UHGV virus genome: UHGV-1333851
Direction: 5' to 3' (one strand)
DNA: 18,488 nt
DNA from: a virus
Positions 5,982 to 12,594 of the stretch are shown here, one piece after another; positions within the stretch are counted from its first letter, which is position 1; every line of letters begins with the position of its first letter. A program made the translations under genes and the position numbers. The notes under the pieces are model-generated. The model did not search any database. It was not told the DNA's origin and saw only the letters and a program-made list of their open reading frames with translations.

Positions 5982-6421
5982 TTGGCTGGGGTGTATGCGT
6001 TCTTGCGTTAGCCTTAGCCGATCGCTATTTGCTAAAACGCAAGGACATCACGCATTTAGAACTTGGTGATGTGGAAATTAAACAGGGCTTCATCCGGGTG
6101 CCGTTCAAATACCGGTCTAAATTCCCGTTTTTGCGCGGCGCAACGGTCAGATATTGGATCCGCGATGTTCAGAAGCCAACGACAGTGATTGAAGGCGAAC
6201 AACGTTGTCTGACGTCGGCTGAACAGGGCGAAAACAGTGAATGGTTGTACATACCCACTGAATATATGGGTAAAGGAGAGCGACTGTGGCATTTCAACGT
6301 CATGGTTACGCATGGCGACTCGTTCATTAACCCGTTGTATCGGATTTTCCCTGTTACTCAGAAAATCCGCAGAAGTTACGTAATAAATCTCGCACAGGAT
6401 GTGTCAGATGACGAAAAATAA
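5978..6421 (+). CDS. lydB: LydB-like protein (putative holin antagonist/lysis regulator)
   Basis: 147 aa. ATGA start/stop overlap with the preceding gene and a strong SD (GGGAGGTG). N-terminal hydrophobic segment. Assignment rests on position and size only. Confidence 0.45.
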   Translation: MIGWGVCVLALALADRYLLKRKDITHLELGDVEIKQGFIRVPFKYRSKFPFLRGATVRYWIRDVQKPTTVIEGEQRCLTSAEQGENSEWLYIPTEYMGKGERLWHFNVMVTHGDSFINPLYRIFPVTQKIRRSYVINLAQDVSDDEK

Positions 6422-7010
6422 GTATGCAACGGTCGATTTTGACCAGGTTAATGAAAAGGGGCTGAAATCCCTTATCGCGGCGATCAATAAAACCGGTGTT
6501 ACGGTAATTGAGGTTGACTCCAGCAACCGCGCAACAACGAAAGATGGCGTTAAAGTTAAAACCGCAAAGCTGGTTCTTAACGACGGACAAATTCTTGCCA
6601 TACAGGTAAACGATACTGGCGATATATCGTCTGTGAAACTGAATGGAAAAGCTATTCCTAACGCTCAGTCGCCGGATATCAAGACGCTTGGTACCGTCAT
6701 GGGACAGGCGGCCCGCAAAAACTCCGCAAAATTCCAGAAATCACTGATCGCCAAAGCGAAGCGTGTTGCCAATCCGGTAGACAAGAAACCGGCAGTTAAA
6801 TCCAACTTTCAGCGCCTGCAAGAAGCAAAACAGCGGAATGCTCAGGTGGTTGCCGCTTATAAGTCCGCGCAGAATTCGGTGTCTTTCAATCAACAGCAGA
6901 TCACTGATTTGCGGGCGAAGCTGGATAAGGAGACGGGCCGACTCAATAACGAAAAGGCACGGAATGGCGAACTTAAACGTCGTCTTAAGCAACTGAAAGC
7001 AGGAAATTAA
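6408..7010 (+). CDS. hdf: Hdf-like protein (paralog of a DarA fragment)
   Basis: Start at the ATG at 6408 (AGGA 9 nt upstream). Shares a region with the next, larger gene (L.DGQ…NSAKFQ.…K). C-terminal coiled-coil-like K/R/E-rich tail. Confidence 0.55.
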   Translation: MTKNKYATVDFDQVNEKGLKSLIAAINKTGVTVIEVDSSNRATTKDGVKVKTAKLVLNDGQILAIQVNDTGDISSVKLNGKAIPNAQSPDIKTLGTVMGQAARKNSAKFQKSLIAKAKRVANPVDKKPAVKSNFQRLQEAKQRNAQVVAAYKSAQNSVSFNQQQITDLRAKLDKETGRLNNEKARNGELKRRLKQLKAGN

Positions 7011-7011
7011 C

Positions 7012-8931
7012 ATGGAACAGTTCAATATCAATAAAGGGGTGACGATCAAGCCTGGGCTTGACGTGCTTCCCCCGCCAGTGACTGATGATGAATATCGCGC
7101 ATTAATGGCCGGTGAGGACCGCTATCTGATGACGGAATCCAACACCCTGGAGGAAATCGAGGCTACGTTCTTCTATGACACGCCGATCCACTGGTGTGCT
7201 ACGGATTTACTGGAGGCGATTAGTTCTACTCGTTTGCAGTTACACCGGACCATGCAGGCATTTGTCCGGGCATTGAACCAGAAGCTGAATGGTACCGGAA
7301 TCTCTGCGGGGAGTGATAAAACGGGGGATGTGGCCCAGAGCGGCGCGCGCGCGATCGGCGGCGCTGAAATTGGTCGGGCACGTAACGTTAACGGGCTGCC
7401 GGTCCTGCCAGCCATTATTCCGCTCAGTGATGGTCAGACTATCAGCATTTTGTTTCATAGCCCGACAGCGGAAAACCGGATCACCAATAGCGATACGCTG
7501 GTTGCTTTCCAGTTCTTACTGAATAAAAAAGACGTTACTCACACCGTTGCTCCGATGAGTGGACGTGATATGACGCTGGCGCAGGTCACCATGAAACTTG
7601 CCAACCTTGCAGAGAAAAACTCGGCAAAATTCCAGCGTGCGCAGAAGAAGAAAAAAGCCCTGGTTGATGAAATAACCCAACTACAGGCTGACAGTGACCA
7701 GAAAGAGGATGCCATGAGCGACCTCGCGGATCAGGTGGCAGCGGTAGAAGGCCAGAAGGCAGATCTGGAGCAGAAAATTAACGCGGTTGCTTCGGAAGCG
7801 GATTCTCTTTATCAAGAAAATGAGCGTTTGCAGGCGGAGATTGATCAGCTCAATCGCACTGGTGGGCGCGATACCATTGCTCCAGCGGGGATGACTGGTG
7901 GGCACTCTCGCGCGCTGACGGATCGCCTTGCCAGTATCAAAAATCGTATGCATATGGACGGGGAAGCGACGCTCAGTAATGGTGCATCAATGAAGCAATT
8001 CATTGGGGATGGCGAAGGGTATATCCAGTTAACCGATCCGGATGGCAGCGTATACATGATCAAGGCTAAATCCATACAGGGTGTGGACATGGCAGAAGCG
8101 ATCGGCAAGCTGTTTAAAGCCTATAAAGCGGGTAATGTATCGGAATATCTGGTCCAACCAGAAGAACATAAACCGGAAAACGTCGAACCTGAACCAGCGG
8201 AGGATACCGGTAGCTCTTCGCCTGAACCAGAAGTCTCTGTAGGTGCATATCGATATGCCCTGCAAATGCGTCCGGCGGCCCCTGGCGCAATACCTGAAGG
8301 TAACAAAGCGATTCTGCCGCGCCCTGATGAAGGTGACCCGTATTATGAATATGCACGCTACGGCATTGCTACTTACGATACCCCGCTTTCTGATCAGCAA
8401 ATGAGTGAGTACGACCTGAAGTTATTGCCTCGCGAGGATTCTTTCGACTTCCTGGCGAAGACACTTACTAATGGTCCGTTTGGCAAATATGCACAAAAAG
8501 CTCTGGAGCTGGCCACCAGCTCACCAGACGAGTTCCGCGTAATGCTGAAAACTCAGTTTCAAAAAACTTTCCCCAATATTGCGTTTCCTGGGGGCACTGG
8601 CACCGAGAAAATGGTGCAGAGCATGATCAATGCATTGCAGGCCGAAGTCGGTGAGATTACTCAGCCAGAACCGGCCCCGGCACAGCCTGATGAAACGGTT
8701 AGCGAAGCAGATGCAGAGGCTAATAAAGCCATTGAATATCTCAATAACGTGATGGATATGCAAAGCACTGACATGGCGGAGATCCGTAACGCCCGGGGTA
8801 ATGTCCGGGAAGCTATTGCAGCCCTTCAGGCTGCCGGGCGTTTTGAGGAAAACGAAGAGCTGGTTAATGGCGCAGCTCGCCACCTGGCTGATCTGCTGGT
8901 AGCAATCCAGAAAGCGGGGGTAGCGGCATGA
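7012..8931 (+). CDS. darA: DarA-like head-internal antirestriction / head morphogenesis protein
   Basis: 639 aa with an internal coiled-coil segment (QLQADSDQKEDAMSDLADQVAAVEGQKADLEQKINAV…). Paralogous to the preceding Hdf-like gene. Size and operon position match P1 DarA by recollection; not verified. Confidence 0.55.
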   Translation: MEQFNINKGVTIKPGLDVLPPPVTDDEYRALMAGEDRYLMTESNTLEEIEATFFYDTPIHWCATDLLEAISSTRLQLHRTMQAFVRALNQKLNGTGISAGSDKTGDVAQSGARAIGGAEIGRARNVNGLPVLPAIIPLSDGQTISILFHSPTAENRITNSDTLVAFQFLLNKKDVTHTVAPMSGRDMTLAQVTMKLANLAEKNSAKFQRAQKKKKALVDEITQLQADSDQKEDAMSDLADQVAAVEGQKADLEQKINAVASEADSLYQENERLQAEIDQLNRTGGRDTIAPAGMTGGHSRALTDRLASIKNRMHMDGEATLSNGASMKQFIGDGEGYIQLTDPDGSVYMIKAKSIQGVDMAEAIGKLFKAYKAGNVSEYLVQPEEHKPENVEPEPAEDTGSSSPEPEVSVGAYRYALQMRPAAPGAIPEGNKAILPRPDEGDPYYEYARYGIATYDTPLSDQQMSEYDLKLLPREDSFDFLAKTLTNGPFGKYAQKALELATSSPDEFRVMLKTQFQKTFPNIAFPGGTGTEKMVQSMINALQAEVGEITQPEPAPAQPDETVSEADAEANKAIEYLNNVMDMQSTDMAEIRNARGNVREAIAALQAAGRFEENEELVNGAARHLADLLVAIQKAGVAA

Positions 8932-9305: not shown

Positions 9306-12293
9306 ATGAGCTTAAGCGATCAGGTGGTAATGGCCACCAGCATAGAAACGCTGATCGAGCTGCTAAAGAACCTGCCCGATTATGGGCGGGTTTCGTATGT
9401 GGTGACAGCGAAGGGAGACGAGGTAAAAACAGCGTTTGATATCGTCGATGCCTCAGCTCTTTTGGTATCCAATACTCTGGATGGGAAAATTAATCCTGAC
9501 TATCCCCAGGAACTTCAACCGCGCGACCGGACCCGCGCATCCAGCCTTCTTCAGGTTAACCAGATATCCAAAGATTTGCGGCCTGCTCAGCTTACCGACT
9601 CCGGTTTATCCAGCCATGGCGCGCCGATAATTGGTGAGGACAATGCCGTTGAGTCAGGTAATGGGCGGACCATGGGGATCATTAAAGCCTATCAGGACGG
9701 TAATGCGGATCGGTATCGGGAGTACCTGATTGAACATGCGACCGAATTCGGCATACGGCCTGAAAAGGTTGAATCAATGACGGCTCCGGTACTGGTGCGC
9801 CGCCGGTTAACGAAGGTTGACCGTGTTCAGTTTGCCAAGGACTCAAATATTTCTGATCTCCAGGAAATGGCAGCCAGTGAAAAGGCTTTTGTTGATGCCG
9901 ACAGCATAACTCCGGCGATGATGGCGCTTTTTAACCCGTCAGAAAGCGGAGATCTGCTTAGCCGCAGTAATGACGCGTTTATTCGCGGATTTATGACGCA
10001 AGTTGGTGCCACACAGGCGGCTGGCCTTGTAACTGAAGATGGGCGACCAACACGGCAACTTGTAGACCGTATACAAAACGCGATCTTTGCCAAGGCATAT
10101 AAGGATGCGCGCCTGGTAAGGATGGTTGCAGAAGAACCTGATCCGGATATGCGTAATGTTCTGACGGCGCTTAATGCGGCAGCCAATGATTTTGTCCAGA
10201 TGCAGGCTTTATCAGGAGAAGCGCACAAGCAGGCTGTGACAACTATTGTTGATGGCATTGAGACAGCGGATAGCCTCGATAAAAAGGCGCTGGCAGCATT
10301 GAAAGATGCGGTAGACCTGGTAAGGCAATCGAAGGAGTCAGGCCAGCATATTACCGATGTTATTGCTCAGGGGGATATGTTCAGCGAAACGGCCCCGGAA
10401 GTGAAAGCACTCGCGTTGTTCATCGTCGCGAATAACCGTAGCGCGAAGCGTATGGCCACCGCCTTTAAGTTGATGGCTCAACGTATCAATGATGAGTTAC
10501 AGCACCAGGGCCAGGCGCTGGGGGATATGTTTGGCGGCGGCGATGTGTCGTTACAGGATATCCTTCGCCAGGTGTCTCAGGAACTGGAAAACGAAGGCAT
10601 GCAAGGGATATCCGGCGGTCTTTTCGAGTCCGTTTCCGGCGGTAGTTACAACGGTGTTGCTCCGTATACCAGTTTGCTATTACATCGGGCATCCGGCATC
10701 AAAGACATTATTCATCTGATCAGGCTGCTTTCCCGCACAGATCCCCAGGATGAACAGCTTGTACAAGTGCTTGCGCATTTTGTTCGAATGCCTGTTGCCG
10801 ACGTGAAAAAATGGTGCCGATTATTCGGTATCAGCAATTCGTTACTTCGCGGCTTGTTAAATCACGCATCCTCCCTTGGGCGCGATGGCTTTGACGAGAT
10901 AGCGCAGGCGATAAAAAACGGAGATATGCCACCAGCTATTGACTGGTTTTCCATTCGCCCAACCAGGGTGAAAGCATTCCTTAGCGCGGCGCATTCGGCA
11001 TCACCATTGGCAGAAATGGTTCAGAGGTTGTCGCTCATATTCACAGACCATAGCGCGTTGGGTGATCTGACTCTGGACGAGATGAAAGAAGCCTCCATTC
11101 AGTGGGCCGATCAACAAAATGAGGTTAACTCAGACTTCTTGCCAGCATTCAGGAAGGCCGTTAGTAAAGTGGATGATGCCCGTGGAATTCTGAAGGCATT
11201 TAAGGCATTGCAAAGTCGGGTTAATAAACATGTCGGTGATATCGATGGGGTAACGGCGGAAGGCAGGGATATCCTTAAAGAGCACGGCATAACGCCAGAG
11301 TTTATTGATGAGATCAGGACGGATATGCAGCGTGAGGTCGTATCGTCCCTGCAAATCGTAGCCAGAGCGTTGGCGGATGCTAATCCGAAGAGTGCGGCCA
11401 TTGTTAACCGGGTTATTGGTGATATTGAAGCATCGGAGGGCATGGGGGCGCTGAAACTCTTCCTTTCGCGAGCGTTTAATCCTAACGGCAATATTCTCCC
11501 CAGCATTATTGGTGAGGCTAAAAAGCATGTCAGTGAAGAAGAACTTGAGCAGCTTAACCAGCTACTCAATCGATTTTCATATATCCCGCAGAAACGCTGG
11601 CAAATGAATCAGCGTAGTATGGATTCGGTCTACGAGAAAGTGTTATCTGCCATGAACAGTGCGATCGCCAACTCATCCGTATCAGAAGAAAAAGCTCTTG
11701 AGTGGGCCGACTCTTTTATCACGGAAGAAGTGGAAGAAGCCCGCGCTGGACAGAATGGTGGAATAGACCTGCGCAAGGAACTTGCTGATATTTATCGCCT
11801 GACCGGCGGGAAAATATCAACCTTATCAAGGGTAATTCACCACAAGGGTAGGGCGTATGCAAATCTTAATGGTGTTGTTGCTGTCGATTTGCACGATGAA
11901 AATGCAAATGCACTGTGGCACGAGCTGGGTCATCATCTTGAGTACAGTAACCCGGGTTTGTTAGAGAAAGCCAGGTCATTCCTGAAGGCCAATGTTGAAG
12001 GGGATAAGCCATCTTTCGTTAATATTGGTGGGCGTGGCAAGCCTGAATGGTGCTTCAGATCTCGATTGAGTGATATTTATATGGCGAAGGTATACCCGCC
12101 TGTCTCAGTGAGTAATTCTGGTAAATTTCGACACAAATCTCCGACAATTTCCAAAACGTCAGCAACGGAAGTATTCTCTATGGCTCTTCAGTTGTATCAT
12201 GACAAAGAGGCCGCTGCCGCATCACTGATGAATGGTGACGGATTGCTGGAACTGTTATTAGGTGTGGCAAAGGAGCTAAATAATGCAGATTAA
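9306..12293 (+). CDS. ddrB: DdrB-like large virion-associated multidomain protein with a zincin HExxH motif
   Basis: 995 aa. HExxH motif near the C-terminus (ALWHELGHHLEYSNPG). N-terminal region has a possible ParB/Srx-like signature (ESGNGRTMG), unverified. Last large gene of the Dar-like operon. Confidence 0.5.
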   Translation: MSLSDQVVMATSIETLIELLKNLPDYGRVSYVVTAKGDEVKTAFDIVDASALLVSNTLDGKINPDYPQELQPRDRTRASSLLQVNQISKDLRPAQLTDSGLSSHGAPIIGEDNAVESGNGRTMGIIKAYQDGNADRYREYLIEHATEFGIRPEKVESMTAPVLVRRRLTKVDRVQFAKDSNISDLQEMAASEKAFVDADSITPAMMALFNPSESGDLLSRSNDAFIRGFMTQVGATQAAGLVTEDGRPTRQLVDRIQNAIFAKAYKDARLVRMVAEEPDPDMRNVLTALNAAANDFVQMQALSGEAHKQAVTTIVDGIETADSLDKKALAALKDAVDLVRQSKESGQHITDVIAQGDMFSETAPEVKALALFIVANNRSAKRMATAFKLMAQRINDELQHQGQALGDMFGGGDVSLQDILRQVSQELENEGMQGISGGLFESVSGGSYNGVAPYTSLLLHRASGIKDIIHLIRLLSRTDPQDEQLVQVLAHFVRMPVADVKKWCRLFGISNSLLRGLLNHASSLGRDGFDEIAQAIKNGDMPPAIDWFSIRPTRVKAFLSAAHSASPLAEMVQRLSLIFTDHSALGDLTLDEMKEASIQWADQQNEVNSDFLPAFRKAVSKVDDARGILKAFKALQSRVNKHVGDIDGVTAEGRDILKEHGITPEFIDEIRTDMQREVVSSLQIVARALADANPKSAAIVNRVIGDIEASEGMGALKLFLSRAFNPNGNILPSIIGEAKKHVSEEELEQLNQLLNRFSYIPQKRWQMNQRSMDSVYEKVLSAMNSAIANSSVSEEKALEWADSFITEEVEEARAGQNGGIDLRKELADIYRLTGGKISTLSRVIHHKGRAYANLNGVVAVDLHDENANALWHELGHHLEYSNPGLLEKARSFLKANVEGDKPSFVNIGGRGKPEWCFRSRLSDIYMAKVYPPVSVSNSGKFRHKSPTISKTSATEVFSMALQLYHDKEAAAASLMNGDGLLELLLGVAKELNNAD

Positions 12294-12594
12294 AATCGCA
12301 GCGCCATTAGGCGGAGATGCCATTATCGAATTTGATGATAATGAAGAAGTTTCCGGGCGTTTAAGCATTATCTCCGGTGACATTACCGAGGACATGATCG
12401 CTGAAGCCATAGCTGGGGCAAATCCCAATAGCTATATGGGATTCGTTAACACCCTTGATGCTCCCGCAAGTGATGTTCTCCGAACGCTGCATCTTTACGC
12501 TGGCTGGTTTGTTGATTGGCCAGTAGTAGATGGTGGCGATGAGGACGACGACGACGATGATTTTGGTGATCATGTAGACCAGATCGTATATTGA
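12283..12594 (+). CDS. Small highly acidic protein with a poly-Asp tract
   Basis: 103 aa. Start overlaps the ddrB-like stop (ATGCAGATTAA). C-terminal DGGDEDDDDDDFGDHVDQIVY. Followed directly by a strong terminator. Confidence 0.5.
   Translation: MQIKIAAPLGGDAIIEFDDNEEVSGRLSIISGDITEDMIAEAIAGANPNSYMGFVNTLDAPASDVLRTLHLYAGWFVDWPVVDGGDEDDDDDDFGDHVDQIVY

Follow-up and report, generated by a model that had tools for sequence, protein, structure and literature searches.

The subject of this analysis is the gene ddrB in an 18,488-nucleotide (nt) stretch of the virus genome UHGV-1333851 (the window, 18.5 kb in all), which belongs to a P1-like phage (Punavirus). The open reading frame (ORF) at 9306..12293 is intact and without interruption in both the ORF list and the translation, and it encodes a protein of 995 amino acids (aa) that aligns with P1 DdrB over 995/995 residues, without gaps, at 96.9% identity. 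Because of this match we regard the protein as DdrB itself; an earlier note on this DNA, made from the letters alone, had called it DdrB-like, which had the relationship right but understated it. The DNA of the region is 97-98% identical to that of P1, RCS47, JL22, SJ46, P7 and others (97.2% for P1 ddrB), and over the whole gene the codons differ from those of P1 at 31 non-synonymous and 48 synonymous positions. None of the resulting 31 substitutions falls on an invariant position of the peptidase domain described below; 22 of them lie within aa 700-950 (nt 11400-12150), at the end of the linker and on the surface of the peptidase domain, and 3 in aa 1-480. The features that we recognise within the gene are the following.

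9306..12293, + strand: ddrB, 995 aa (109.0 kDa), ATG start, stop codon included; from the ORF list and translation and the P1 annotation
9306..10640, + strand (aa 1-445): N-module, a ParB/sulfiredoxin (Srx) domain with a conserved helical extension; from conservation and from its occurrence as a stand-alone gene in related phages
9411..9806, + strand (aa 36-167): DdrB-ParB domain of the ParB/Srx superfamily, PF18763
9516..9530, + strand (aa 71-75): QPRDR, upstream ParB-type motif, invariant
9651..9677, + strand (aa 116-124): ESGNGRTMG, Gly-Arg signature of the predicted ParB/Srx active-site pocket, with R121 as the key arginine
9807..10640, + strand (aa 168-445): all-helical region to which no function was assigned; from conservation
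10641..11627, + strand (aa 446-774): middle region, poorly conserved in full-length relatives; the probable processing-site region if the 76-kDa product discussed below is N-terminal
11628..12290, + strand (aa 775-995): zincin-like metallopeptidase (MPTase) domain; from an AlphaFold2 model and conservation
11916..11942, + strand (aa 871-879): WHELGHHLE, containing HExxH (aa 872-876), the predicted zinc-binding and catalytic motif, and E879; on the model helix aa 868-881
12045..12095, + strand: E914, Y925 and Y930, invariant, in the insert between two core helices; probable active-site lining
12165..12179, + strand (aa 954-958): TEVFS; E955 opens a helix ("glutamate helix") and is the best candidate for the third zinc ligand

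The ParB/Srx and peptidase domains

The earlier note had seen a ParB/Srx-like signature, ESGNGRTMG, in the N-terminal region, and the assignment is supported by sequence and structure alike. PF18763 (ddrB-ParB) matches aa 36-167 with an E-value of 2.2e-39 and a score of 134.8 bits against a cut-off of 27.6 bits, spanning profile positions 2-120 of 121, and a predicted structure of the N-terminal end contains the alpha+beta fold of ParB/Srx, the remaining structural matches of this part being generic helical ones to the extension at aa 170-440. In 27 N-terminal homologues (45-72% identity) every residue of the upstream motif (Q71, P72, R73, D74 and R75) and six of the signature (E116, S117, G118, N119, G120 and R121) are invariant, and R121 is conserved in at least 90% of distant full-length relatives. 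The QPRDR motif presumably corresponds to the "QPR" motif of chromosomal ParB. Conservation is strong over aa 1-440 both in the alignment of N-terminal homologues and in that of full-length relatives, and in the latter aa 780-995 are also well conserved and the stretch between poorly so. For the DdrB-like ParB family a conserved active-site arginine has been described, and nucleotide binding or hydrolysis, or DNase activity, has been predicted for the domain (Iyer 2017, PMC5512222).

At the other end of the protein lies the sequence WHELGHHLE (aa 871-879), which had been taken for a canonical zincin motif. By itself an HExxH is weak evidence, since 3.1% of composition-preserving shuffles of DdrB hold one. 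An exhaustive HMMER search with aa 740-995 against 1.84 billion representative proteins (E<=1e-3) found 352 homologues; a word-indexed search with the C-terminus found six close relatives only. In 149 aligned homologues with less than 60% identity to the query, conservation is 100% at H872, E873 and H876 and 99% at E879, and we rejected the reading of the motif as a chance occurrence on account of this conservation, despite the shuffle rate. A 40-sequence alignment spanning 23-40% identity contains ten invariant columns (R849, H872, E873, H876, E879, E914, Y925, Y930, E955 and S958), with T954 conserved in at least 90% of the sequences.

An AlphaFold2 model of aa 740-995, built from the 40 sequences, reached a predicted local distance difference test score (pLDDT) of 88.8 and a predicted template modelling score (pTM) of 0.84. 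Its elements follow one another as a helix, three short strands, the HExxH helix (aa 868-881), an insert and a helix at aa 956-962 after E955 (in fragment numbering, by DSSP, helix 83-93, strands 103-106, 112-113 and 118-121, HExxH helix 129-142 and later helix 217-223), which is the order of the zincin core of Iyer et al. (PMC5512222). In a structural search the nearest neighbours of the model were lethal factor and the PPEPs, together with the lethal factor-like domains of Certhrax and edema factor and the M32 carboxypeptidases, and the next 40 matches were mostly zincins, thermolysin, M1 aminopeptidases, ACE2, Wss1/Spartan and IrrE among them. The weak Pfam matches of family members are likewise all to zincin families (Zincin_1, Reprolysin_2-5, ATLF, M66 and M91). 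The C-terminal domain of DdrB has no Pfam or NCBIfam match, a PDB sequence search with the single sequence or the 40-sequence profile gave nothing relevant, a Foldseek search did not recognise the domain, and PHROGs returned unannotated families only.

Judging from the model, we place the C-terminal domain among the zincins of the glutamate-zincin type, with a shape closest to that of the lethal-factor-like group. We infer that H872 and H876 are the zinc ligands and E873 the general base; by analogy E955 is the likeliest third ligand, and Y930 probably takes the place of the catalytic tyrosine found in lethal factor and PPEP. Membership in the peptidase family M34 was considered and rejected: DdrB has no ATLF match, and only 1/40 family members gave one, at an E-value of 0.042. 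The earlier note had proposed structure prediction on the two ends of the protein as a check on its reading, and both the ParB/Srx and the zincin fold were seen.

Much of this was known. The metallopeptidase suspicion dates to the 2004 P1 genome annotation (PMC3650047); the P1 RefSeq record (YP_006491.1, P1_gp022) describes DdrB as "unknown protein function; possible metallopeptidase", and the annotation of phage JL22 as "putative metallopeptidase". Iyer, Burroughs, Anand, de Souza and Aravind (2017, PMC5512222) defined the "DdrB-like ParB" family from DdrB, identified its C-terminal MPTase and used P1 DdrB as a worked example of a polyvalent protein. The earlier note's idea of a polyvalent, virion-delivered counter-defence protein agrees with that publication and with what we see here, ParB and MPTase domains in a single ORF within the late darA operon. 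The two-domain description is already in print, and the gene finding as such adds nothing to the literature.

Modularity of DdrB and linkage of its peptidase to DarA_N

Is the peptidase tied to the ParB module, or to its gene neighbours? In the window the gene order, lydA-lydB-hdf-darA-ddrA-ddrB-hxr, is that of P1, and the ORFs upstream of ddrB encode, by Pfam and the P1 annotation, two LydA-type holins, LydB, Hdf, DarA and DdrA. The genes that matter for what follows are these.

6399-7010, + strand: hdf, Pfam DarA_N; P1 annotation; darA late operon
7012-8931, + strand: darA, Pfam DarA_N and DarA_C; P1 annotation; 639 aa
8928-9293, + strand: ddrA; P1 annotation; same operon as ddrB
12283..12594, + strand: hxr, 103 aa; 11-nt overlap between its start and the stop of ddrB, and a strong AAGGAG 7 nt upstream of the ATG

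Comparison with relatives shows DdrB to be modular, its domains parting naturally at about aa 445 and about aa 775. Many P1-like plasmid-prophages have the N-module by itself as a complete gene (441-481 aa, 60-72% identical), and some clusters of such N-module-only proteins hold from hundreds to more than 1,000 member sequences. In Leclercia (L003/L004, 7001-8425) and Vibrio (L005, 7001-8446) elements ddrB consists of ParB and the helical part of the N-module only (474 and 481 aa, respectively) and still stands behind hdf, darA and ddrA; in Leclercia the next gene encodes a CHAP-domain protein, and in Vibrio an ORF of 110 aa follows. Within 7 kb these P1-like elements showed no MPTase of the DdrB family, and none was found hidden in their enlarged DarA. 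DarA is longer there, at 1021 and 1597 aa, than the 639 aa of the window. Most homologues of the peptidase domain, for their part, are proteins of about 600-680 aa without ParB or any other Pfam domain.

Domain combinations of another kind were noticed along the way. An inorganic pyrophosphatase domain (InPase, PF18823) precedes DdrB-ParB in Vibrio phage proteins of about 614 aa (P0028 and P0203-P0235, including relatives) and precedes DarA_N in a 1405-aa protein (L008 3658-7875), and one 1378-aa protein combines InPase, two ParB copies and MPTase.

Four ParB-less MPTase genes that we looked up singly all lie downstream of a DarA_N gene, three of them adjacent to it and one with a 113-aa ORF between. 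A giant polyvalent protein then follows in 3/4 of these loci, in two of them after an ORF of 91-98 aa; homology of these small ORFs to Hxr was found in a close relative only and was otherwise undetectable. For a broader view, loci in viral contigs were scored with local profiles and de-duplicated at <70% identity, the DarA_N profile recovering 9/9 Pfam-labelled controls; a first scan had given 80 near-identical, uninformative P1-like loci, and it was repeated with a divergent lead sequence. A DarA_N ORF stands upstream on the same strand, within 3.5 kb, for 34/37 peptidase genes of the main class (within 500 nt for 25/37), and in 32/34 of the main-class loci with enough upstream DNA. Among the 32 main-class loci whose downstream DNA extends to 4 kb or more, 22 have an ORF of at least 1000 aa within 4 kb downstream. 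Since the loci are related to one another by descent, these counts are of non-independent events and overstate independence. ParB is found on the DarA_N giant or on the downstream giant in 5/37 main-class loci, and its fusion to MPTase, among the loci examined, only in the P1-like group and in the L131/L133 group.

A lower-scoring subclass from IMG/VR contigs (L134-L148), whose proteins are of about 458 aa with the peptidase domain C-terminal and score 120-150 bits against the family profile, has no DarA_N gene nearby, and the Dar linkage is thus not universal for the peptidase family. For the main class the pattern suggests that in many uncultured phages the peptidase belongs to a DarA-anchored machinery for loading cargo. 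The linkage of DarA_N, MPTase and giant protein is apparently new: Iyer et al. treat gene neighbourhoods in general terms, and we did not find this specific linkage stated in the papers that we read.

Possible action of the peptidase

What is known of DdrB in the virion comes from work on P1. Purified virions contain DdrB (39 peptides, 59.5% coverage; PMC9024508), the same paper lists it as aiding the addition of DarB to the capsid, and PMC12810830 gives the order of incorporation as Hdf/DarA, then DdrA, DdrB, DarB and Ulx, and assigns DdrB, DarB and Ulx together to the EcoB/EcoK branch of protection by Dar ("defence against restriction"). DdrB is non-essential (PMC10695390), and Dar protection works only in cis, on co-packaged DNA (EcoSal review, PMC12707154). 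In Iyer 2017 (PMC5512222) DdrB is stated to be processed to a 76-kDa form before packaging, and the same authors proposed autoproteolysis, with the N-terminal ParB fragment as the packaged part.

DdrB is a known member of the Dar set of internal head proteins of P1, which are packed in the capsid and leave it with the DNA, and we propose that it is a polyvalent protein in three parts. Residues 1-445 would form an autonomous cargo module, a ParB/Srx-fold domain carrying QPRDR and SGNGR with its helical extension, and this domain is most likely an enzyme that binds nucleotides, hydrolyses nucleotides or cuts DNA. Residues 446-774 would be a fast-evolving linker, and residues 775-995 a zincin with a complete, invariant catalytic set, its site predicted to be lined by Y930, Y925, E914, E879 and R849. 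The peptidase is most probably an active enzyme that serves the assembly or maturation of the Dar proteins. For three things taken jointly, the gene identity, the assignment of both domains and a peptidase that is active and linked with Dar assembly, we put the probability at roughly 80%.

The simplest reading of the processing is that the peptidase would cut its own chain in the linker near residue 690 and leave an N-terminal product of about 76 kDa in the head. Residues 1-690 have a computed mass of 75.4 kDa, which fits the 76-kDa product if the chain is cut in the linker and its N-terminal side retained. Self-cleavage in particular we would put at a little under even odds, and several points weigh against it or against our wider proposal. 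The alignment of full-length relatives contains no conserved cleavage motif near residue 690. The maturation cleavages of the major capsid protein and DarA in P1 have been attributed to the Pro protease (PMC12810830), and since these other head-maturation cleavages are assigned to Pro, it could by analogy be the enzyme that cuts DdrB. The supplement of the virion proteomics study holds no peptide-level data on which fragment of DdrB is packaged, and in the literature we found no test, whether biochemical or genetic, of either the peptidase or the ParB domain of DdrB. In the 40-sequence alignment E914 and E879 are as invariant as E955, so that they too are candidates for the third zinc ligand. 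Finally, self-processing leaves unexplained the tight linkage to DarA_N genes of those relatives that have the peptidase only and no other domain recognisably fused to it.

If not its own linker, what would the peptidase cut? One answer is that it acts in trans. Docked in the procapsid on the platform of DarA/Hdf (DarA_N), it would serve the Dar cassette as a dedicated enzyme for maturation or loading. It would process or help to load the giant effector (in P1, DarB) or further proteins of the Dar set, self-cleavage would be incidental, and ParB would be a cargo fused to the peptidase in the P1 lineage; the DdrB-type peptidase would then be the conserved middle gene of a widespread cassette of DarA_N anchor, metallopeptidase and giant injected effector. 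We offer this only tentatively, as a possibility with the odds clearly against it. It would account for MPTase-only proteins of about 600-680 aa, free of other Pfam domains, in the position of DdrB, for the frequency of DarA_N upstream (32/34) and of ORFs of at least 1000 aa downstream (22/32) in de-duplicated loci with enough DNA, and for a ParB domain that moves between the ORFs of the cassette and is fused to MPTase in the P1-like and L131/L133 groups alone; it also agrees with the listing of P1 DdrB as an aid to DarB addition (PMC9024508) and with its entry just before DarB (PMC12810830). Gene linkage does not reveal a substrate, however, the relatedness of the loci inflates the counts, and we found no report of DarB being processed in the papers that we read. 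Moreover, the Leclercia and Vibrio elements keep a DarB-like gene and the N-module with no MPTase within 7 kb, and therefore effector loading cannot need the peptidase everywhere.

The peptidase might instead be injected as an effector and cut a protein of the host's defence, such as a type I restriction enzyme subunit. Iyer et al. list this among the possible roles of polyvalent-protein MPTases (PMC5512222), and the company of DarB and Ulx in the EcoB/EcoK branch (PMC12810830) is in keeping with it, as are the structural neighbours of the domain, lethal factor and the PPEPs, which are highly specific endopeptidases acting on foreign targets, and the concentration of 22/31 of the differences from P1 in aa 700-950, which would fit a target-facing surface. 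We nevertheless think it improbable, because Dar protection is cis-acting (PMC12707154), which fits a diffusible protease poorly, and because the peptidase may be cut off before packaging and would never enter the host if only the 76-kDa N-terminal product is packaged; there is also no known target. That the C-terminal domain is a catalytically dead scaffold, a pseudopeptidase, or that HExxH arose by chance within a helical stretch, is very improbable indeed. Some 3% of shuffles contain the motif, Foldseek, Pfam, NCBIfam and PDB sequence searches missed the domain, and inactive zincin homologues are common in general, but the two histidines and the glutamate are absolute in 149 divergent homologues and accompanied by seven further invariant polar or aromatic positions of active-site-like character, exactly the residues that pseudoenzymes normally lose. 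This conservation effectively excludes a chance motif and speaks strongly against a dead scaffold.

Self-processing or not, the analysis yields a list of residues for mutagenesis (H872, E873, H876, E955, Y930 and R121) and natural domain boundaries near aa 445 and aa 775, and the pattern of gene linkage makes the substrate of the DdrB peptidase a directly testable question. The peptidase matters still, P1 being a workhorse phage whose Dar proteins are now put to use in delivering proteins (PMC9024508). Were the peptidase to act in trans, the cassette and not the single protein would be the unit of counter-defence delivery, and P1 DdrB would be a lineage-specific fusion with a wandering ParB module.

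Flanking genes and comparison with known systems

Other features of the window lie around and within ddrB. Translation of hxr is coupled to that of ddrB, and Hxr has an acidic, Asp-rich tail at its end; the P1 annotation calls it a "possible repressor, homolog of Xre", and our searches gave neither a helix-turn-helix (HTH) nor a Pfam or NCBIfam match for it. A 143-aa antisense ORF inside ddrB, 9827-10258 (-), is the annotated iddB of P1 ("unknown protein function"), which CRISPR interference found to be non-essential (PMC10695390); our analysis saw no support for it as a gene. Downstream of hxr the IS1 and isaB of P1 are absent from the window, and an extra Tad2-like gene is present. The segment 12624-14264 (-) holds two ORFs of 262 and 281 aa, the latter ending in a Tad2-like domain (Thoeris anti-defence 2-like, PF11195, E 2.5e-22). 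P1 IsaA (320 aa) is made up of the opening ~60 aa of the 281-aa ORF joined to the 262-aa ORF, and from this arrangement P1 appears to carry a deletion that took out the Tad2-like part.

Relative to P1, then, DdrB of the window has the same length and the same neighbours, and differs by its 31 substitutions and by the DNA beyond hxr. From the DdrB-like ParB family PF18763 (Iyer 2017) it shows no difference, DdrB being the prototype of that family, whereas chromosomal ParB and KorB carry HTH DNA-binding and dimerisation domains after the N-domain where DdrB has its helical extension. The MPTases of other polyvalent proteins (ArdC, N4 virion RNA polymerase and TraC1; PMC5512222) resemble that of DdrB in having an HExxH helix separated by variable inserts from a Glu helix further downstream, and in sitting in a phage-delivered multidomain protein, for which DdrB is itself cited as an example (PMC5512222). 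To anthrax lethal factor and PPEP (MEROPS M34, ATLF PF07737) and to MtfA (M90) the DdrB domain is 11-15% identical, and judging from the model the likeness to lethal factor and PPEP is that of a structural analogue within the zincins and not one of family membership. A parallel is also found in T4, whose IPI-III and gp21 resemble the Dar system in that anti-restriction proteins are loaded into the procapsid, matured by proteolysis and ejected with the DNA (PMC9024508). In T4, however, it is the prohead protease that cuts, whereas in the Dar system the cargo protein DdrB bears a predicted metallopeptidase of its own and loading needs the DarA/Hdf platform (PMC12810830).

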